A stretch of 64,000 nucleotides of DNA from Candidatus Hydrogenedentota bacterium (GCA_963745075.1 CAVUWV010000036.1:32001-96000), one strand, 5' to 3'; shown: positions 18,807-28,798, numbered from the stretch's first letter. Numbers and translations are program-made. The notes: generated by a model not told the origin, from the sequence alone.

Positions 18807-18896
18807 CGTTGCCGATTCCCTTGGCGCGAAGTCTTGTGATAGCATTAGCCAATGCCGCGTTTACCCCGAGAACGCAAGGTTCGCGCAATCCTTTTG

Positions 18897-19187
18897 ATGG
18901 ACGCGGACCGAGTAGCCCTTGCCGTGGCGGCGCTGGTCGCCACCGTGGTTCTCGTTTTGTGCCTGTTCTATGCCAAGATCGAAAGCTTCGAGGTTGCGTT
19001 TCGGGTTAGTTTGGCGTTCGCGGTCACGTATGGAGTTTGTTTTCTATCGTTCCGGTTCATTCAGCGGACCACACGCGAGGAAATGAGCGCGCTCGAGGAA
19101 GCGCGCCTGGCCGCCGAGGCCGCACGCCGGGCCGCCGAAGCGGAAGCACATGAAACGGACGAAGAGTTTTCAGGAGAAATGGAATGA
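18897..19187 (+). CDS. Small hypothetical membrane protein (2 TM)
   Basis: Two hydrophobic helices and an acidic tail; ATGA overlap with the next gene. Confidence 0.65.
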   Translation: MDADRVALAVAALVATVVLVLCLFYAKIESFEVAFRVSLAFAVTYGVCFLSFRFIQRTTREEMSALEEARLAAEAARRAAEAEAHETDEEFSGEME

Positions 19188-20293
19188 GACGGGTTTGCTT
19201 TGCAGTCTTTGTAGCTATGGCCGGCTTGGTCGCTTATGCCCAAGCGCCGAATCTGGATTTGATGGACATTGTGTTGAAATCCGTTCCGGATGGTCCGGTG
19301 GCGCTGGTTAACAGTGAACCCATCAGTGCCCAGGAGTTTAAAGATCTCTACATGGGAGAAGTCCTTCGCTGGGCGCAACTTAACCCAGGAAAAGAGGTTA
19401 CGGACGAAGTGCGTCTCGGCATCGCGTTGAACGGTTTGCGCATGCTGATCGAACGCGAAATTCTTTACCAGGAAGCGCAGAAGCGCGAATTTACCGTATC
19501 CGACGCGGAACTGGAAGCGAAGTGGCAGGACGAACTCGACACGTTGAAGAAGTCAGGCTCCGGGGATGACGACGCGAATTTGACCGAATCGGAAATCCTG
19601 AAGCGGGCGGGCGCAACGCGCGAGGAGGCCTTGGCGGAATTGCGCAAAGCGCTGCTTATCGAGAAGGCCCGCCAAGCCATCATGAATGAAAAGGGCGTTT
19701 CCGTTTCGGATCAGGAAGTCAAGGATTGGTATGCGAAGAACAGTGACCGTACGCGCCGCCCCGACATGATGCACTTGAAGCAGATCTTTATTGAGGCTGA
19801 TAAGACTCGTAAAGACGCCCAGAAAGGTGCGAGCCAGAGCCGTGCGGAAGAGGCATACAAACGCATTCAGTCCGGACAGAGTTTCGAAGGCGTCGCCAAG
19901 GCCGTGTCCGACGGCCGGTATAAAGACGACGGGGGGGACTGGGGCACGCGACCGGTCAGCGAATTTCCCCCATTTATTGTGGAAGCCGCCAACAAATTGC
20001 AGCCGGGCGAAGTGAGCAAGCCGATCAAGAGCGAATACGGGTACCATATCCTCAAGCTTGTGGAGATTCTTCCCGGCGAGGAAGTGCCGCTGGACAAGGC
20101 GAAAGAGAATATTCGAAAAATGCTGCTGGCCAGGAAGGGCGACCAGGCCATCCGCGAGTTTACCAGCACGGTCACGGGTGACGAGAAGGCCCTCCACGTG
20201 TATCTGGATCTTGATCGGCAAATCCGCGCCAACCCGGAATTGCGCGACCAATTTACCGAAAACGAACCGGAATCACCCAAATCATCCAAGTAG
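19184..20293 (+). CDS. SurA/PrsA-like peptidyl-prolyl isomerase
   Basis: Signal peptide, VALVNSEPIS, GQSFEGVAKAVSD..GGDWG, GEVSKPIKSEYGYHILKL. Confidence 0.85.
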   Translation: MRRVCFAVFVAMAGLVAYAQAPNLDLMDIVLKSVPDGPVALVNSEPISAQEFKDLYMGEVLRWAQLNPGKEVTDEVRLGIALNGLRMLIEREILYQEAQKREFTVSDAELEAKWQDELDTLKKSGSGDDDANLTESEILKRAGATREEALAELRKALLIEKARQAIMNEKGVSVSDQEVKDWYAKNSDRTRRPDMMHLKQIFIEADKTRKDAQKGASQSRAEEAYKRIQSGQSFEGVAKAVSDGRYKDDGGDWGTRPVSEFPPFIVEAANKLQPGEVSKPIKSEYGYHILKLVEILPGEEVPLDKAKENIRKMLLARKGDQAIREFTSTVTGDEKALHVYLDLDRQIRANPELRDQFTENEPESPKSSK

Positions 20294-20522
20294 CTCCCGG
20301 CCACGGTGGCGAGGCTTCCATTCGGTCTGTGATGTCCCACACCTCCCTGCTGCGGCGCCTGGGAACGGTGTGCATGCTGTCTGGGCGGACCCGATATCTT
20401 GTATATCGCGCGCTCATTACCACCACAAATCCGTAGCTGGATGACCTGCGATTTTTGATAGCGGTTTCTGCTTGTCAAATCGTCAAATTGCTGTCACTAA
20501 ATAGCTTACAGACTGTAAATAC

Positions 20523-20551
20523 TTGACGGACAGCCTTCCGAATGGTACAAT
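20523..20551 (+). promoter_or_regulatory. Sigma70 promoter of the MshEN-DnaA-like/pil operon
   Basis: TTGACG(20523-20528)-17 nt-TACAAT(20546-20551) with extended -10 TG. Confidence 0.7.
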
Positions 20552-20628: not shown

Positions 20629-22935
20629 ATGCTGAATTGGCGTAAAGACAAATCAGAAGAGGATTCTTTGGGGAAGGCCCAAGGGGCCGCCGCGCCTCCA
20701 GCATCACCATCATCCCAACCAAGTTCCGTTACCGGTCCCCCGCCATCGCGACCGCGCGTGAACGCGGGTCGGCTGGGCGAAATCCTGGTCAAAGAAGGGG
20801 TCGTCACACCGGGACAACTGGAGGAGGCGCTCCAGCAACAAAGCGGAAACGGAAGGTTCCTCGGCCAAGTCTTGGTCGAGTTGGGTTTCATCACCCAGGC
20901 GACCCTGGTGTCTTTCCTGGTCAAGCAGTGCAAGATTCCGCACATCAGCCTTGTTGACTACGTGGTCAGCGAAGATCTGTTCAAGCTGGTTCCGAAGGAA
21001 CTTTGCCTGAAACACAATTTGCTTCCCATTGATAAACTGGGGCGGATCCTGACCCTGGCCATGGTGGATCCTTTGGACGTGGAAGCGCTGGAAGAGGTCC
21101 GCAAGTCCTGTCCGGATATCAAAATCAAACCGATTCTTTGTGACTGGAACCACTTCGACAGCGTTGCGCGGAAGGTCTTTCACACGGAGGCGCGGGAAAT
21201 CCAGGAAGTCACCGCCGGGAGTTTCGGGCTTTCCGAACAGAAATCCCGCCCCAAGCCCAAAGAGCCCGACAAACAGGAACGGACCGCGGTGGATGCGGCG
21301 GTGGACGCCCTCGTCAAAGAGGCCGCAGCAACCGTCAAACGGGAGGCCAAGGCGCCTCCAAGAGCCGATGGCGGAAGCCAAAAGGCAGTCGAGTCCAGTC
21401 GGCCGGTGAAACCAGCACCGCCGTCTGCTCCGGCCACACCGGTTGAAGCCGCCGACAGTCAAGTGACGGATAGCATCCGGGCGGTGTTGCACGAGGCGTT
21501 GGCGCCCTTGCTGGCCGCCAGCGCGCGAACGGACGCACCGCCATGGGACGCCAAGGCGTTTCAATCCGGCATTCGCGATTCCCTGCAAGAGGTCATTGCA
21601 CCCCTGCTGGCCGAGCAACAGAAGCTGTCCGCAGCCCGGTCCTCGGACAGTACGCCGCCGCCGGACCCCAAAATGTGGGCGGGGCAAGTCAGCCAGGAGT
21701 TGCGGGACTCGGTATTGGCGGGGCTTGACACCATGCTTCGAGCGCAGCGCGACGAGTCGCCGCGCGGCGCGGCCATGCCGCAACCGGATGAACTGGCCCG
21801 GTTGATTCAAGGCAGCGTCGAGAAACCGCTGGCGGAGCTTGCCAGGGGCATCCACGATGCCTTGCAGGAGCGGGGGGAACAGGGTTCGAGCATCTCGCCG
21901 GAACTCTCGTCCCTTATTGGCGAGAACGTACGCAGTGTGGTCGCCGAACAAGAGAAGCGCTTGGCCGAGATGACCGAGGTGATGGTCAAGACGACGCAGG
22001 CCGCTGAAGCGGCCTTGAGAGCGATCCAGGAGGAGCGCGCACAGACCCAAGGAGCCGTCGAAAACACCACGCGTATCGCCAACCTCGAAATCTTTCCCGG
22101 TACCAGCGAAATTTCGACCGGACAATTGTCGGACGCCGGCGCGCTGGATAGTCCCGGCCTCGGCATGGAATCGGACGAGCGCGTCCGGGAAGCGGTGGAC
22201 AGCGACCGGATTTTGAACGGCTACACGTTTGACGAGTTTCTGGTCGGTCCCGCGAACACCTTCACGCTGAAAGCGGCGCGCGCGCTGGGCGAGCAACTGA
22301 CGCTGGATTTCAACCCCTTGTATGTCTGCGGAGACGAGGGTCTGGGAAAGACGCATCTGCTCAACGCGGTGGGTAATGCGTTGCTCGGGCGAAATCCCGA
22401 TTTGCGGGTGGCGTATGTGTCCACCAGCCACTTTGCCGGCGCCTTTGCGACGGCGCTGAAACACGACGAGCTTTCGGAGTTTCGGGATCGGTTTTGCCGG
22501 TGGGACGTGCTGCTGATTGACGACATCCAGTTCCTTGCCGGACGGACCGAGGCGCAGGAGGAGTTGTTTCACATTTTCAATGCCCTGGTCCATGAGGGCC
22601 GGGTTGTGGTTATCGCGGGTGACCGTTCCCCGGACAAGCTTCCGGAGTTCCAGAAGGGACTTGCGTCCCGGTTCTCGTCGGGGATCGTCACGAAATTACG
22701 GCCACCGGAGATGGATGTGCGTCTGGCCATTTTGAAGCGTTATGCCGAAATGCACCGGGTAGCCGTGCCGGAGGAGATCCTGTCGCTGGTCGCGACCCGG
22801 ATCGCCACGGACGTCCGCAAAATGCGGGGGGCGTTGCGAAAAGTCATCGCATATGCCAAACTTGTCGAGCAAGACATTACGCGCGAGATGGCTAACGAGG
22901 TACTGGATAGCCTCGGTGCCGATGACGCCGCGTAG
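20629..22935 (+). CDS. Fusion protein: MshEN/T2SSE-N domain + long linker + DnaA/Hda-type AAA+ domain (no DnaA domain IV)
   Basis: RLGEILVKEGVVTPGQLEEALQQQ MshEN motif; YTFDEFLVG..N, NPLYVCGDEGLGKTHLL, DVLLIDDIQFL, QEELFHIFN, LASRF, DVRKMRGAL; stop right after domain IIIb. Confidence 0.85.
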   Translation: MLNWRKDKSEEDSLGKAQGAAAPPASPSSQPSSVTGPPPSRPRVNAGRLGEILVKEGVVTPGQLEEALQQQSGNGRFLGQVLVELGFITQATLVSFLVKQCKIPHISLVDYVVSEDLFKLVPKELCLKHNLLPIDKLGRILTLAMVDPLDVEALEEVRKSCPDIKIKPILCDWNHFDSVARKVFHTEAREIQEVTAGSFGLSEQKSRPKPKEPDKQERTAVDAAVDALVKEAAATVKREAKAPPRADGGSQKAVESSRPVKPAPPSAPATPVEAADSQVTDSIRAVLHEALAPLLAASARTDAPPWDAKAFQSGIRDSLQEVIAPLLAEQQKLSAARSSDSTPPPDPKMWAGQVSQELRDSVLAGLDTMLRAQRDESPRGAAMPQPDELARLIQGSVEKPLAELARGIHDALQERGEQGSSISPELSSLIGENVRSVVAEQEKRLAEMTEVMVKTTQAAEAALRAIQEERAQTQGAVENTTRIANLEIFPGTSEISTGQLSDAGALDSPGLGMESDERVREAVDSDRILNGYTFDEFLVGPANTFTLKAARALGEQLTLDFNPLYVCGDEGLGKTHLLNAVGNALLGRNPDLRVAYVSTSHFAGAFATALKHDELSEFRDRFCRWDVLLIDDIQFLAGRTEAQEELFHIFNALVHEGRVVVIAGDRSPDKLPEFQKGLASRFSSGIVTKLRPPEMDVRLAILKRYAEMHRVAVPEEILSLVATRIATDVRKMRGALRKVIAYAKLVEQDITREMANEVLDSLGADDAA

Positions 22936-22951: not shown

Positions 22952-24676
22952 GTGCCGCCTAAAATAGCCAAACGCCGTTTGGGTGATGTGTTGCTGGAGC
23001 AGAGTCTCGTTACGGAGGAGCAGCTCCACGAATGCATAAACCTTCAGCGCTCGTCGGGCCAGAGCCTGGCCTCGATCCTCGTTTCCAAGGGGTATCTGGG
23101 CGAAGAGGATCTGGTTGTTACGTTGAGCGAACAGTTGGGCATCCCCCACATCCGGGTGGCCAACTACAATATTCCCCAGGAGGTGCTGAACGAGGTGCCG
23201 GAGTCGCTCGCGCGTCAGTACCAGATGCTTCCGGTATCGGTCACGGGCGACGTCCTCACGTTGGCCATGGCCGACCCCCTCAACATTATGGCGCTGGACG
23301 ACCTCCGCATGCTGACCAGCTACGAAATCGAGCCAGTGGTAGCCGTCCAGTCCGAACTGAATGATGCCATTCATAAACACTACGGCGGTCAGACCAGCTC
23401 GAACCTCTTTGACGAACTCATCGGCGGCGAAAGCAAGCAGGATGGAATCGAGGTCGTCGACGAAGAGGAGCAGATCGAAGACATCGCGCACATGCAGGCC
23501 GAGGCGCAGGATGCGCCTGTCATCCGCCTGGCGAATCTCATTCTGCTGAAAGCCCTCGAGGCCCGCGCGAGCGATATTCACATCGAGCCCTTTGAGAAGG
23601 TTTTGCGTGTGCGGTATCGCGTTGATGGTGTGCTCGAAGAGACGAAGAACCCGCCGAAGAGCGTACAGTCGGCATTGATCTCACGCTTCAAAATCATGTC
23701 GGGCCTCGATATTGCCGAACACCGTCTGCCCCAGGACGGCCGGTTCCGTACCCGGTTCAAGGGGCACGACATCGATTTCCGCGTTTCGATTCTTCCGTGC
23801 TACCACGGCGAGAAGATCGTGATGCGCGTGCTCGACAAGAGCAGCCTGACGCTGGACCTCGATGGCTTGGGCTTTGCGGTTCAGCCGATGCAGGCATTTC
23901 AAGAGGCGCTGGCCCGGCCCTTCGGGATGATTTTGCTCACCGGACCCACCGGTAGTGGTAAGACCACGACATTGTACAGCGCGCTCCATAAACTCAATAG
24001 TCCGGATACGAACATCATCACGGTTGAAGATCCCATCGAATACGAATTGTTCGGCGTCAACCAGGTTCAGGTGCGGGCGGAAATCGGCCTTTCGTTTGCG
24101 GCCGGTTTGCGCAGTATCCTGCGCCAGGACCCGGACATTATCATGGTTGGTGAGATTCGTGACGAAGACACGGCCGATATCGCCGTGAAAGCGGCACTGA
24201 CCGGTCACTTGGTGTTGAGCACGTTGCACACCAACGATGCATCCAGCGTCTTTACCCGCCTAATCGATATGGGAATGGAACCGTTCCTGGTGCAGTCCTC
24301 CGTGGCCTTGGCGGCGGCCCAGCGCCTGTTGCGCCGCGTGTGCCCCGACTGCAAAGAGAGCATTCGCGTGCCGCCGGATGTGTTGGAGCGAATTCAGTAC
24401 ACGGCGTTGCCCGACGCGCCAGCCCCGAATTTCGTGCGTGGCCGCGGCTGCGGCAAATGCAAAGACACGGGCTATCGAGGCCGTCTCGCGGTCATCGAAG
24501 CCATGACCAACTATCCCGAGTTGCAGGATTTGATCATGACGCGGAAGCCGGCCAGCGACATCAAGCGGGTGGCCGTGGATTGCGGCATGCGGACCCTGCG
24601 GCAAAATGCCCTCGAAAAAGCGGCTGAGGGCGTTACCACGATTGAGGAAGTCCTGCGCGTATCCGCGATGGACTAG
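22952..24676 (+). CDS. pilB: Type IV pilus assembly ATPase (PilB/GspE family)
   Basis: ASDIHIEP, RLPQDGR, GPTGSGKTTTLY, LRQDPDIIMVGEIRD, tetracysteine CPDC..CGKC. Confidence 0.9.
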   Translation: MPPKIAKRRLGDVLLEQSLVTEEQLHECINLQRSSGQSLASILVSKGYLGEEDLVVTLSEQLGIPHIRVANYNIPQEVLNEVPESLARQYQMLPVSVTGDVLTLAMADPLNIMALDDLRMLTSYEIEPVVAVQSELNDAIHKHYGGQTSSNLFDELIGGESKQDGIEVVDEEEQIEDIAHMQAEAQDAPVIRLANLILLKALEARASDIHIEPFEKVLRVRYRVDGVLEETKNPPKSVQSALISRFKIMSGLDIAEHRLPQDGRFRTRFKGHDIDFRVSILPCYHGEKIVMRVLDKSSLTLDLDGLGFAVQPMQAFQEALARPFGMILLTGPTGSGKTTTLYSALHKLNSPDTNIITVEDPIEYELFGVNQVQVRAEIGLSFAAGLRSILRQDPDIIMVGEIRDEDTADIAVKAALTGHLVLSTLHTNDASSVFTRLIDMGMEPFLVQSSVALAAAQRLLRRVCPDCKESIRVPPDVLERIQYTALPDAPAPNFVRGRGCGKCKDTGYRGRLAVIEAMTNYPELQDLIMTRKPASDIKRVAVDCGMRTLRQNALEKAAEGVTTIEEVLRVSAMD

Positions 24677-24701: not shown

Positions 24702-25775
24702 ATGGTCGATATCAGCATCAAAGAATTGCTCACCAAAACCATCGAAAAAGGCGCCAGCGATCTGCATATCGTCGTTGGTTCGCCGCCCATCATTCGGCTT
24801 AACGGCAACCTCGAGGCCATGCACGAATACCCGGTCTTCAAGCCGGACGAGACGCAGGAAATCATCTATAGCGTCATGAGCGAAGAACAGATCGCGATGT
24901 TTGAAACGGACCGCGAGTGCGACCTCTCGTTCGGGATTGAAGGACTTAGCCGGTTCCGTCTCAACGTCTACCGCGACCGGGGATCGGTGGTGGCGGCGTT
25001 TCGCGCGATCCCCTTTGAAATCCGGGGCTTTGAAGAATTGGGGCTGCCCCGGGTCGTCGCGGATTTTGCCTACCGCCCGCTGGGGCTTATCCTGGTTTGC
25101 GGCCCGACGGGTAGCGGAAAATCGACCACGCTCGCCTCGATCATCGATAAAATCAATCGCGAACGTCCCGTGCACATCATAACCATCGAGGATCCCATCG
25201 AATATCTGCACAATCACAATGTGGCTACAATCAACCAGCGGGAAGTCAACGCGGACACCAAGTCCTTTGGCGCAGCGTTGAAACGTGTGCTTCGTCAGGA
25301 TCCCGACGTGATTCTCATTGGTGAGATGCGCGATCCGGAGACAATCGCCGCTGCTTTGACCGTGGCGGAGACGGGGCACCTCGCCTTTGCCACGCTGCAC
25401 ACCAACGACGCGCTCCAGTCGATTAACCGTATCGTGGATGTGTTTCCCTCGAACCAGCAGGATCAGATTCGCACGCAGTTGTCGTTCGTGCTGGAAGGCA
25501 TCGCAGTGCAGCAGCTCATCCCGCGCGCGGACGGTATGGGGCGGGCCCTCGCCCTGGAGGTGATGCTACCCAATACGGCTATCCGTTCGCTCATCCGCGA
25601 GCAGAAGCTTCAGCAGATTCCGTCCATGATCGAGATTGGCGCGGGCGAAGGCATGATGACCATGAACCAGTCCCTCTACCGGCTCATGCGGCGCAACGTG
25701 ATTACGAGCGACATGGCGTTCAAGCGCAGTGCCGATCCGGAAGGCCTGCGGCGCCTGATGGAAAAGGGGCTGTGA
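24702..25775 (+). CDS. pilT: Type IV pilus retraction ATPase
   Basis: GPTGSGKSTTLA, LRQDPDVILIGEMRD, AETGHL, PilT signature AIRSLIRE. Confidence 0.92.
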   Translation: MVDISIKELLTKTIEKGASDLHIVVGSPPIIRLNGNLEAMHEYPVFKPDETQEIIYSVMSEEQIAMFETDRECDLSFGIEGLSRFRLNVYRDRGSVVAAFRAIPFEIRGFEELGLPRVVADFAYRPLGLILVCGPTGSGKSTTLASIIDKINRERPVHIITIEDPIEYLHNHNVATINQREVNADTKSFGAALKRVLRQDPDVILIGEMRDPETIAAALTVAETGHLAFATLHTNDALQSINRIVDVFPSNQQDQIRTQLSFVLEGIAVQQLIPRADGMGRALALEVMLPNTAIRSLIREQKLQQIPSMIEIGAGEGMMTMNQSLYRLMRRNVITSDMAFKRSADPEGLRRLMEKGL

Positions 25776-27400
25776 CCACTTCCGGCCTTCCCATTCCCGT
25801 CCGGCCATCGCTGAGCGCGTTCGGTCCGTGGCAGTTCGTCATCGGAAGCGTCCGGGTGGCGGCTGTCTGCGTCATCGCGGCGGGCACGCTTTCTTTTGGT
25901 GAATACGCGGGGAGTGAGTCGATCTATCTTTCCGCGTTCTACCTTTTCGGGCTGGTGTGCAGCGCCGGGTACCTGCTGGCGCTGCGGCGGGTGCACTACG
26001 TGACGCCCTTGTTCACCTGGGCGCAGGTGCTTGTCGATCTCGGCGTCGTCGCGGCGGCCGTCAGTTTCACCGGCGGTCTTGGCAGTCTGTACACCTTTCT
26101 GTTCGTCATCGTGGTTCTGGAAGCGGGCATACTGCTCGGACTGATCCAGGGATTTATCTTCGCAACGCTGTGCACGGGAATTATGGGGGTTCTGGTGCTC
26201 ATGCGGACAGTCCCGGCCGAGGGCCTGCCGATTGCAGAGCAATGGTACAACCAGGATCGCTATACCCTTTGGTACGGCTACCTCATCCAGGTGCTTGCTT
26301 ACTATCTTACCGCATCGATCAGCGGGTATTGGAATCAGCAACTGCACCGTCTGCAGCAATTCCAGCGGGAAATCCTGGACAACATGAACAATGGATTTCT
26401 GATCGCCGATCTCGCCGGCCGGATCACGGTGGTGAACAAGGCGGCGGAACGCATTCTCAATTTGCGGGAAGACAAAGCCATCGGCAAGCCGGTGCAGGAC
26501 ATCCTGCGCGTCGCGTCGGGCGAAGAATGCCCGGTGATTACCGCGTTGCGGTCGGAGCGTGATTTTACACGCTACGAATACACCGGTCTTGTCAATCCGG
26601 GCAAGACCATGCTTCTCGGCTTGAGCACCAGCCGCATCTACGACTGGCGCGGGCGCATGACGGGGATCATCGCGTCCTTCAGCGATCTGACGGAACTGGA
26701 GCAGATGCGGCAAGAACTCAAGCGGCAGGATCGCCTATCCATCGTAGGCGAACTGGCCGCCGGTTTGGCCCACGAGATCCGGAACCCGGTGGCAGCTATC
26801 CGCGGCGCAGTAGACGAACTTACCACGAGCCTGGATCACCCGAAAGTCGCGGAGAAACTACTCTCCATCGCGCTACGGGAATCGGACCAACTCAACGCGA
26901 TCGTCTCCGATTTTCTTGACTTTGCACGAAAACCCCGTATGCGTCGCGACATATTCGACGTGCGCGGGCTCATAGATGAAGTAACCGATTTCATGCAACG
27001 GAAATGCGAGGGGAACACGGAATTCTCGATCGAAACAGAGATTCCTGATGCGATCTGCCCTGTGTCCGGCGACCGGTCTCAGATCCGTCAAGTCTTTGTG
27101 AATCTCGCGAAGAACGCCGCGGAAGCCATGGACGAGCGGGGGCGTCTCCTCATCGCGGTTGTCCTGGGACCGTCCTCCGTCGAGGTCCGTTTCGATGACG
27201 AGGGACCGGGTATCGATCCCGACAAGGTTGCGCGCATATTCGAGCCTTTCTATACTACGAAGGACACCGGTGTTGGCATGGGGTTGGCTATCTGTCTTCG
27301 GATAGTCTCTGCCCACGACGGCACCATCCGGGCCGCGTCGCGCGAAGGAGGCGGCGCGACGATGAGCGTGAGGCTCCCCAGAGCGGGAACGGAGGAATAA
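25772..27400 (+). CDS. pilS: PilS-like membrane sensor histidine kinase (TM-PAS-HisKA-HATPase)
   Basis: Multi-TM N-terminus with TGG.S, LAHEIRNP, FEPFYTTK..GVGMGL; lies between pilT and the sigma54 regulator. Confidence 0.8.
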   Translation: MTTSGLPIPVRPSLSAFGPWQFVIGSVRVAAVCVIAAGTLSFGEYAGSESIYLSAFYLFGLVCSAGYLLALRRVHYVTPLFTWAQVLVDLGVVAAAVSFTGGLGSLYTFLFVIVVLEAGILLGLIQGFIFATLCTGIMGVLVLMRTVPAEGLPIAEQWYNQDRYTLWYGYLIQVLAYYLTASISGYWNQQLHRLQQFQREILDNMNNGFLIADLAGRITVVNKAAERILNLREDKAIGKPVQDILRVASGEECPVITALRSERDFTRYEYTGLVNPGKTMLLGLSTSRIYDWRGRMTGIIASFSDLTELEQMRQELKRQDRLSIVGELAAGLAHEIRNPVAAIRGAVDELTTSLDHPKVAEKLLSIALRESDQLNAIVSDFLDFARKPRMRRDIFDVRGLIDEVTDFMQRKCEGNTEFSIETEIPDAICPVSGDRSQIRQVFVNLAKNAAEAMDERGRLLIAVVLGPSSVEVRFDDEGPGIDPDKVARIFEPFYTTKDTGVGMGLAICLRIVSAHDGTIRAASREGGGATMSVRLPRAGTEE

Positions 27401-27406
27401 CACGGA

Positions 27407-28798
27407 GTGGCTGTCCAACACCGAATCCTCGTGGTAGACGACGAGTCGGGCATGCGCGAACTGCTGGAAATCGTGCTCGCCAAAGACGGGTACGACGTGG
27501 TAACGGCTTCCAACGTCGATGATGCCCAGAGACTTCTCGAGGACCAGAGTTTTGACGTGGTGCTGACCGATCTCCGCATGGGCAGCGACCGCGACGCCGG
27601 GATGACGCTTCTCACGTGGTTGAATGAAAACAGCCCGTCCACACCATCGATCATGATGACGGCGTACGGTTCCGTGGAAACGGCCATCGAGGCCATGAAG
27701 CGGGGCGCGGCCGACTACATCATGAAGCCGTTCAAGAATGAGGAAGTCCGCATTCTTATTCAGCGGGCGATCGAGCAGACGCGAATCAAACGCGAAAACA
27801 TCGCGTTGCGAAAAGAACAGGCCAAGCGCGGCAACCTCGACAACATCATCGGCAAAAGCAAGCCCACCGAAGAATTGCGCGAGATGATTCGCCGCGTTGC
27901 GGATTTACCCAGCACGGTCGCCATCCACGGCGAGAGCGGAACCGGCAAGGAACTCGTTGCGCGGGGCATCCATCAATTGAGCAGCCGCACCGGCAAACCG
28001 TTCGTGGCCGTCAATTGCGGCGGATTCCCCGAGAATCTGTTGGAAAGCGAGCTGTTTGGCCACAAGAAGGGGTCGTTCACGGGCGCCTATGAAGACAAAG
28101 AAGGGCTGTTTGTGGTAGCCGATGGCGGTTCACTGTTCCTCGACGAGATTGGCGAAATGCCCATGGCCCTGCAAGTGAAACTGCTCCGCGTGTTGGACAA
28201 CAGTATCGTCCATCCAGTCGGCGGCACGGTGGGAAAGAAGGTCGACGTCCGGATTATTTCCGCGACGAACCGCGACCTCGCCGCCATGGCTCAGGAAGGT
28301 TCATTTCGGGAAGACTTGTACTATCGGCTCAACGTCATCCCCATAACCGTGCCGCCCTTGCGGGAGCGCGCCGATGACATCCCTCTGTTGATCCGGCATT
28401 TTGTGCGGGTCCACGGCGAGAAGATGAATCGCGGTGAATTGCAGGTTTCCAACGACGTCGAGGATCTATTGGGGGGCTATCCCTGGCCGGGGAATGTGCG
28501 CGAGCTGACCAATCTGCTCGAGCGGGCCGTGGCGCTGTGCCGGGGCGACGTTATCGAGATTGGCGACCTTCCCCCGAATATCCGCGATCACGTGGCTACT
28601 CCGGGAGAAACCGCCAAGAAATTGCCTCAAGGCGGTCTCGATCTGGAGGAGTACGTGGCCGAAATCGAAACCAGCCTCATCAAACAGGCGCTCCAAAGTA
28701 CCAAGTATTCCCAGAAACGGGCCGCCAATCTTCTGGGGCTCACCGCGCGGTCGCTACGCTATCGGTTGAAGAAGTACGGGCTGGCCGACGACGACTGA
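27407..28798 (+). CDS. pilR: PilR-like sigma54-dependent response regulator
   Basis: REC domain, GESGTGKE, ESELFGHKKGSFTGA, WPGNVREL, Fis-type HTH RSLRYRLKK. Confidence 0.82.
   Translation: MAVQHRILVVDDESGMRELLEIVLAKDGYDVVTASNVDDAQRLLEDQSFDVVLTDLRMGSDRDAGMTLLTWLNENSPSTPSIMMTAYGSVETAIEAMKRGAADYIMKPFKNEEVRILIQRAIEQTRIKRENIALRKEQAKRGNLDNIIGKSKPTEELREMIRRVADLPSTVAIHGESGTGKELVARGIHQLSSRTGKPFVAVNCGGFPENLLESELFGHKKGSFTGAYEDKEGLFVVADGGSLFLDEIGEMPMALQVKLLRVLDNSIVHPVGGTVGKKVDVRIISATNRDLAAMAQEGSFREDLYYRLNVIPITVPPLRERADDIPLLIRHFVRVHGEKMNRGELQVSNDVEDLLGGYPWPGNVRELTNLLERAVALCRGDVIEIGDLPPNIRDHVATPGETAKKLPQGGLDLEEYVAEIETSLIKQALQSTKYSQKRAANLLGLTARSLRYRLKKYGLADDD

Follow-up and report, generated by a model that had tools for sequence, protein, structure and literature searches.

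Gene locus and domain architecture

The window analysed here comprises 64,000 nucleotides (nt) of one strand from a Candidatus (Ca.) Hydrogenedentota bacterium (GCA_963745075.1 CAVUWV010000036.1:32001-96000), and positions are counted from its first letter. Directly upstream of the pilus motor gene pilB, the window encodes a fusion protein in which an MshEN head, with the tandem motif of cyclic di-GMP (c-di-GMP) receptors, is joined by a linker to a DnaA-type AAA+ domain (DnaA domain III). Judged by its sequence, the fusion belongs to the MshEN receptors and falls outside DnaA, Hda and PilB. An old paralog of the DnaA AAA+ domain has been retained at a pilus motor locus phylum-wide; it preserves the nucleotide switch and has lost the DNA contacts. 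The features of the locus are summarized in Table 1.

The head matches NF053729 (NCBIfam c-di-GMP motif; residues 48-100, 65.2 bits, cut-off 38) and PF05157 (MshEN; residues 102-189, 56.3 bits, cut-off 23.1), and the C-terminal domain matches PF00308 (Bac_DnaA; residues 531-688, E 1.6e-51). In the Pfam scan the fusion gave no match to Bac_DnaA_C (domain IV), DnaA_N (domain I) or the T2SSE ATPase domain PF00437, the last of which is found in the neighbouring PilB. This domain composition had been anticipated by an earlier interpretation of the DNA made without database searches (the sequence-only reading), which had also placed correctly the start of the MshEN motif at nt 20770, the end of the fusion 16 nt upstream of pilB, and the hallmarks of DnaA domain III (Walker A GDEGLGKT, Walker B LLIDD, SRF finger, sensor 2), for which the alignment to B. 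subtilis DnaA is gap-free. Its term 'canonical' for the MshEN motif is not strictly apt: the two glycines are in place, but the second half-motif begins with Phe and not with Arg. The open reading frame (ORF) terminates five residues past the AAA+ lid.

The linker is 159-780 amino acids (aa) long among relatives. At approximately residues 485-495 (nt 22081-22113), many long forms share a short motif of hydrophobic character (V/I-x-x-F or F-P-G) within the otherwise variable linker; with a permissive pattern and without background control, a loose V..F motif was counted 30-40 residues N-terminal to the ATPase in 69/83.

Literature searches in a collection without most subscription journals and bioRxiv supplements found no paper on an MshEN-DnaA fusion, in agreement with the claim that the architecture is uncharacterised. 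It is without an entry in Supplementary Table 4 of PMC5013675, neither supplement of which contains 'DnaA'; a term search of PMC10866078 returned neither pilus, DnaA nor c-di-GMP, and the literature on Hydrogenedentes and type IV pili yielded nothing on this architecture.

Table 1. Coordinates of the fusion gene, its parts and its neighbours in the window
Feature	Position	Strand	Remarks
Conserved element, candidate operator	20478..20522	+	Inverted repeat TTAC-N5-GTAA at 20506-20518, just 5' of the -35 hexamer
Sigma70-like promoter	20523..20551	+	TTGACG-17-TACAAT with TG extension; 10/12 match
MshEN-linker-DnaA domain III fusion	20629..22935	+	768 aa from ATG; internal stops 0
Tandem c-di-GMP motif RLG...Q / FLG...Q	20770..20928	+	Residues 48-100; both Gly present
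MshEN_C / ND1 subdomain (PF05157)	20932..21195	+	Well-conserved lineage-specific subfamily; candidate docking domain
Linker, Pro/Ala-rich then helical	21196..22173	+	Low conservation
DERVREA helix, conserved, N-terminal to AAA+ core	22174..22200	+	
DnaA-type AAA+ domain (IIIa + IIIb)	22219..22917	+	Pfam, alignment, AlphaFold model
Walker A	22330-22353		
Walker B	22510-22524		
Arginine finger	22669-22671		
Sensor 2	22816-22818		
C-terminal Ala-Ala	22927..22932	+	Candidate ClpXP degron
pilB, degenerate MshEN motif	22952..24676	+	GTG start; TIGR02538 660.8 bits, slightly below cut-off 675.65
pilT retraction ATPase	24705..25775	+	TIGR01420 above cut-off; start codon inferred
PilS-like PAS histidine kinase	25772..27400	+	Weak 6TM_PilS match; PAS, HisKA, HATPase_c
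PilR-like sigma54 response regulator	27407..28798	+	Response_reg, Sigma54_activat, HTH_8

Distribution and synteny

The uncultured phylum was surveyed in 109 genomes, each at least 85% complete. Of these, 95 have a fusion-type ATPase with a higher score than the canonical DnaAs, and the architecture was directly read in 83 distinct complete long-form sequences. PF05157 and PF00308 are both found in 120/120 homologs among the matches listed; the source names and 57/80 record titles are Ca. Hydrogenedentota, and the remaining 23 titles bear other labels.

A total of 90 loci were classified, comprising 76 complete fusions, eight loci cut by contig ends, three head-only forms, and three heads with a cyclic-nucleotide (cNMP) domain. 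The synteny with pilB, which the sequence-only reading had proposed to search for across genomes, was confirmed: pilB lies directly 3' of the fusion in 75 of the 76 complete loci (73 distinct sequences), and the sole locus without it ends 291 bases from the contig edge. Wherever the next gene is readable it is pilB, and never dnaA or dnaN.

Among the other 14 genomes, two (G090, G068) have a contig edge at which the tail of an ATPase precedes pilB, one (G078) has an MshEN head that runs off the contig, two (G063, G064) have head and linker without the ATPase immediately before pilB, one (G026) has a closed head-only ORF close to a contig end, and three (G055, G056, G065) have pilB downstream of an unrelated gene; for five, the queries used recovered neither fusion nor pilB.

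A short form of about 450 aa is found in proteins named Ca. Abyssubacteria or Poribacteria, and it precedes pilB in 3/3 metagenome loci. These derive from a metagenome scan with a short-form alignment, in which 3/80 loci held fusions and 65 of the other 77 passed the DnaA pattern and were used as outgroup.

The AAA+ domain

The AAA+ domain of DnaA is familiar as a module of replication control, in DnaA itself and in Hda. In the fusion, its AlphaFold model (predicted local distance difference test, pLDDT, 92.1) has its best match in DnaA domain III (8bv3/8btg/2z4r; root-mean-square deviation 1.5-1.8 Å), and matches Hda at 3.6-5.1 Å. For the 454-aa short form, the predicted template modelling score is 0.67 and the five models have a pLDDT of 62-78, with the inter-domain error not shown.

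Residues of the AAA+ domain are numbered as in B. subtilis DnaA (offset 417), such that Arg681 of the fusion is Arg264 (SRF finger) and Arg730 is Arg313 (sensor 2). The fusion has the AAA+ fold of the initiator clade with Walker A/B, sensors and arginine finger, and Lys157, Asp214, Asp215, Gln226, Ser263, Arg264 and Arg313 are invariant in long (83/83) and short (36/36) forms. Eight filament-interface residues and two single-stranded-DNA (ssDNA) residues are essential in B. subtilis DnaA (PMC6669920). Filament residues retained in the fusion are Arg202 (82/83), Phe218 (70/83), His231 (67/83), Arg264 (83/83) and Gly317 (82/83), and those changed conservatively are Leu269 (to Ile/Val) and Arg321 (to Lys, 83/83).

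The ssDNA/DnaA-trio residue set (Ile190, Asn187, Glu183, Ile193, Lys222, Arg202, Glu228) is not preserved as such. Ile190 is not retained, and Arg mostly replaces Lys222; of the base-capturing residues, which include Glu183, Asn187, Arg202 and Glu228 (PMC10721633), Glu183 and Asn187 are lost, and Arg202 and Glu228 are kept. Cognate DnaA has Ile190, Asn187 and Glu183 in 19/19 or 18/19 sequences; Asn187, which is also missing from the unrelated DnaA set, is the weakest of the lost DNA-contact markers. This residue pattern suggests that the domain probably binds ATP and can use the arginine finger of a neighbour, and that it does not unwind DNA.

In a 34-row quick tree, 16/16 DnaAs and 18/18 MshEN-fused domains were split by one branch (Shimodaira-Hasegawa-like approximate likelihood ratio test, SH-aLRT, 96), and a grouping of the long forms with cognate DnaA was rejected (approximately unbiased test, p-AU 0.001). 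A 76-row quick tree agrees (support 93); in it, two further proteins without domain IV group with the fusions. Support in both trees is by SH-aLRT only; in the 34-row tree, outgroup loci L176 and L177, without a domain-IV pattern, were excluded, and P0227, P0229, P0241 and P0243 were counted as DnaA by length, not by Pfam. On these alignments the AAA+ domain is an old paralog of DnaA, not a copy of the cognate dnaA.

We regard it as unlikely that the fusion is a clamp-independent regulator of DnaA. In this reading, DnaA would take up the AAA+ domain as a subunit blind to DNA, which would cap, poison or sequester DnaA filaments at the base of the pilus, and the timing of replication initiation would come to depend on c-di-GMP and on the state of the pilus. 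A DnaA paralog of this kind, tethered to the pilus motor by a c-di-GMP-sensing head, cleared by ClpXP and co-polymerising with the initiator, would wire surface sensing into replication initiation throughout the phylum, as a direct physical link from pili to initiation. Both DnaA interface faces are largely kept (Phe230 68/83, Asn234 66/83, Ser263 and Arg264 83/83; the latter two match Hda Ser152 and Arg153, and we take Phe230 and Asn234 to correspond to Hda Phe118 and Asn122), although a homo-oligomer would depend on these faces as well. The domain still shares 38% identity with DnaA domain III, but identity does not set cognate DnaA (38.4%) apart from unrelated DnaAs (36.9%), a cognate clade is rejected as given above, and position 321 is Lys in 83/83 fusions versus Thr in 18/19 cognate DnaAs, with Cys versus Arg at position 206. 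A degron would suit a cell-cycle regulator, and Caulobacter has a pilus-to-cell-cycle link made of other parts (PMC7196804); however, two genomes have lost the ATPase but not the head preceding pilB, three more have no part of the gene upstream of pilB, and the readable neighbour is pilB, not dnaA or dnaN.

Other DnaA-derived proteins were observed. A second one in the same genome (G000 C8:302079-304751; L079:4080-6752, + strand) has a degenerate AAA+ domain, with Walker A kept and Walker B altered, followed by a coiled coil of about 700 aa. DnaA domain III without domain IV occurs elsewhere (P0121-P0243) as tandem double AAA+ proteins of about 650 aa (one named Gemmatimonadota), as AAA+ with DUF835 (Thermoplasmata), as AAA+ with a zinc ribbon, in an Auribacterota form, and in giants of 1876 and 1990 aa with the order MshEN-AAA-long helical region-AAA; homologs of the P0231 head are PilB/GspE proteins.

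Relation to Hda and to the canonical dnaA

The sequence-only reading had offered a c-di-GMP-gated, Hda-like regulator as one possibility, which we do not uphold. An Hda sliding-clamp motif (QL[SD]LF or QLSLPL-type) was found in 0/38 loci and 0/120 homologs among the matches listed, with looser clamp-like patterns in just 5-9 of the 38 loci, and the fusion scores below the cut-offs of the Hda hidden Markov models (TIGR03420, 102.7 vs 194.8; NF005982, 56.4 vs 268). Hda has an N-terminal clamp motif, the interface residues Phe118, Asn122, Ser152 and Arg153, and an ADP site at Arg56/Asn103 (PMC5397184), whereas the Walker A Lys and the Walker B Asp-Asp of a DnaA-type ATP site are invariant in the fusion, and its fold is nearer DnaA than Hda. 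A true Hda equivalent, which would carry out regulatory inactivation of DnaA at a sliding clamp loaded on DNA and would answer to c-di-GMP, is therefore very improbable, although the fusion is without domains I and IV and has the invariant Arg finger of Box VII (Ser263-Arg264, 83/83), and although no other Hda-like gene was found in the assembly, save that of the degenerate AAA-coiled-coil protein.

The sequence-only reading had also proposed to confirm a separate canonical dnaA. It is present in genus mates, whose DnaA is complete (domains I, III and IV), but neither it nor any domain IV match was found in this assembly (89.7% complete). In one genus mate, the gene upstream of dnaA corresponds to sequence within the final kilobase of contig C2 of this assembly, the end of which is presumably the start of an insertion sequence. 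An oriC-like AT-rich region of 803 bp upstream of dnaN (G000 C10:409087-409889; L260:7087-7889) contains four DnaA boxes (at most one mismatch), with a DnaA-box background of 0.11 per kb. An assembly gap is the likeliest cause of the missing dnaA. On the other flank of the oriC-like region, a tandem-MshEN secretion ATPase gene stands in dnaA's place.

The fusion as the only initiator of the genome was rejected in view of the full DnaA of the genus mates, the synteny at the C2 end, and the DnaA boxes upstream of dnaN; an assembly chimera was rejected because the fusion is intact throughout the phylum. The missing dnaA is what would speak for a chimera, a pseudogene or a rearranged initiator of the cell itself, and against the foregoing we give this explanation practically no weight. 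Databases often label the fusion proteins 'DnaA', which makes dnaA counts in Ca. Hydrogenedentota genomes misleading.

The MshEN head and the motif of the adjacent PilB

MshEN receptors are recognised by two 24-residue motifs with a 5-residue spacer and a Gly at position 3 of each. The fusion family has both motifs, with the first Gly in 30/32 and the second in 31/32, and with Phe in place of the second half-motif Arg in 30/32; in the short forms, the second Gly is found in 36/36 and the first in 28/36. The fusion-adjacent PilB proteins have the second Gly in 0/75 and the first in 39/75 (Pro in 29), and in PilB of the studied locus the second Gly is replaced by Ala (23069-23071). Mutation of Gly11 in MshE abolishes c-di-GMP binding (PMC5013675), and a GSPII domain of Thermus in which one motif is good and the other degenerate does not bind it (PMC11731258). 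Since PilB has lost a Gly that the fusion keeps, the PilB motor looks blind to c-di-GMP and the preceding gene holds the intact site. The head of the fusion is predicted to bind c-di-GMP; in T. thermophilus PilF GSPII-B, a hydrophobic residue (Leu) at the second Arg position accompanies high affinity (PMC11731258).

The genome encodes 14 GGDEF matches. Furthermore, it contains 17 ORFs with MshEN-like domains (contigs C10, C12, C18, C19, C20, C23, C24, C27, C3), several of them stand-alone or C-terminal. The MshEN subfamily of the fusion, which also heads paralogs with other outputs (L063, L064, L069, L070, L075 and related loci), acts like a mobile module in the phylum, and a short S-[FL]-G-L motif 3' of ND1 is common to the fusion and many paralogs.

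The C-terminal Ala-Ala

The protein ends in Ala-Ala in 70/83 distinct long-form fusions and in 114/120 homologs among the matches listed; the background is 28/2704 long ORFs of the genome. The last three residues have a pLDDT below 50, i.e. the Ala-Ala is free on a flexible tail, and the genome encodes ClpX and a transfer-messenger RNA tag ending in AA. Terminal Ala-Ala is the main element of the ClpXP degron (PMC7652416), and we infer that the long forms are turned over by ClpXP through this end.

Promoter and neighbouring genes

Sigma70-like sites were found twice, versus 0.2 expected in shuffles. In five of five aligned genus genomes, both hexamer regions of the promoter upstream of the fusion and the block 5' of it are kept; the inverted repeat is perfect in three and has one mismatch in two. 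This conserved site is the sole support for the transcription from one promoter that the sequence-only reading had predicted. No DnaA boxes with up to two mismatches were found in the promoter region of the fusion. The type IV pilus operon, also claimed earlier, stands in that the fusion heads pilB, pilT, pilS-like and pilR-like genes, but pilC and pilM are not part of it: the genome has two pilM clusters and several genes of the pilC type at sites away from the fusion-adjacent pilB. Upstream of the fusion (18852-20293) are an ORF for a 111-aa membrane protein, without a Pfam match, and a SurA/PrsA-like peptidyl-prolyl isomerase gene; the order of these two genes and the fusion is conserved in some genus mates, and the isomerase gene is also found in a few other relatives.

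Proposed role of the fusion

A DnaA-derived ATPase co-opted into the pilus system, the other possibility of the sequence-only reading, fits the synteny, the complementary decay of the PilB motif, and the head-only forms. We judge it somewhat more probable than its contrary that the fusion is a c-di-GMP input relay for the adjacent pilus motor, which works via a docking head and a self-assembling ATPase. The pilus role is suggested by the decay of the second Gly in PilB and not in the fusion, by the head-only forms before pilB, and by the Ala-Ala end. The head would bind c-di-GMP in place of the decayed site of PilB, and would dock on the pilus motor or its platform, with PilM, PilB or PilC as putative partner; ND1 is a proposed PilM-binding surface (PMC8389850). 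Self-assembly of the ATPase, dependent on ATP and made through the arginine-finger interface with DNA not engaged, would bring several heads together, and ClpXP proteolysis through Ala-Ala would reset the relay, such that the long forms would be short-lived. The effect on the motor might be activating or inhibiting. If this relay exists, it is another route that feeds c-di-GMP into a PilB without a site of its own, and the filament module of the initiator serves as a general ATP switch.

Several observations weigh against this relay. Three genomes (G055, G056, G065) have a degenerate pilB with an unrelated upstream gene and no fusion there, so that the fusion is not strictly needed by PilB. 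The loss of Arg206 (Cys in 65/83), which is among the essential filament residues of B. subtilis DnaA, means that a DnaA-like filament is not assured. With Phe at the start of the second half-motif, the affinity for c-di-GMP is a prediction only. Both Gly are present in 27/28 other PilB/GspE proteins, a control that is biased through its retrieval with a motif-bearing query, and the genomes are related, so that the counts are not independent observations. Ala-Ala is lacking in the short forms and in two outlying orders, and therefore looks like a later addition. Finally, the same head subfamily is found away from pilB on paralogs with cNMP-binding, PAS-GGDEF and FHA-GGDEF outputs (Pfam was run on 5/15 of such paralogs), and the first Gly is lost in 12/13 of the cNMP-type paralogs, so that the head may be mainly an address label.

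In its full form, the latter explanation holds that the MshEN subfamily docks at the pilus pole, that the ATPase is one of several cargoes and builds a scaffold or acts on a third partner, and that c-di-GMP tunes only the localisation. The higher conservation of ND1 than of the nucleotide motif accords with it, as do the fusion-specific lid residues (Asp311 and Lys321, 83/83; Arg320, 72/83), which suggest a dedicated partner. However, only the DnaA fusion and its head-only derivatives precede pilB, and they kept both Gly where PilB lost one; we thus consider the address label rather unlikely, and retain the c-di-GMP relay as the preferred explanation.

Comparison with known systems

The fusion resembles DnaA domain III (B. 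subtilis 8BTG/8BV3, T. maritima 2Z4R) in its fold, in 39-40% identity, and in Walker A/B, sensors 1 and 2, the arginine finger, and most filament-interface residues. Unlike DnaA, it is without domains I and IV, has not kept Ile190, Glu183, Asn187 and Arg206, lies in a pilus-operon context, and falls on a branch separate from all sampled canonical DnaAs. With Hda/HdaA it shares a DnaA-type AAA+ domain without domain IV and a conserved arginine-finger face; it differs in having no clamp motif, and in its DnaA-like ATP site, MshEN head and long linker.

PilB of Xanthomonas and Pseudomonas has no c-di-GMP motif and is under the control of PilZ and FimX (PMC8389850). The FimX-PilZ relay appears similar in its proposed logic, i.e. 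a separate receptor supplies the signal to a PilB without c-di-GMP motif; the two systems have no domains in common, the fusion being a duplicated PilB-type head on a putatively oligomerising ATPase, and the likeness would be functional only.

The MshEN/GSPII heads (V. cholerae MshE, 5HTL; T. thermophilus PilF GSPII-B) have the same 53-residue tandem motif and ND1 subdomain as the fusion, whereas in the fusion the second half-motif starts with Phe and the output is a DnaA-type AAA+ domain, not a T2SSE ATPase.

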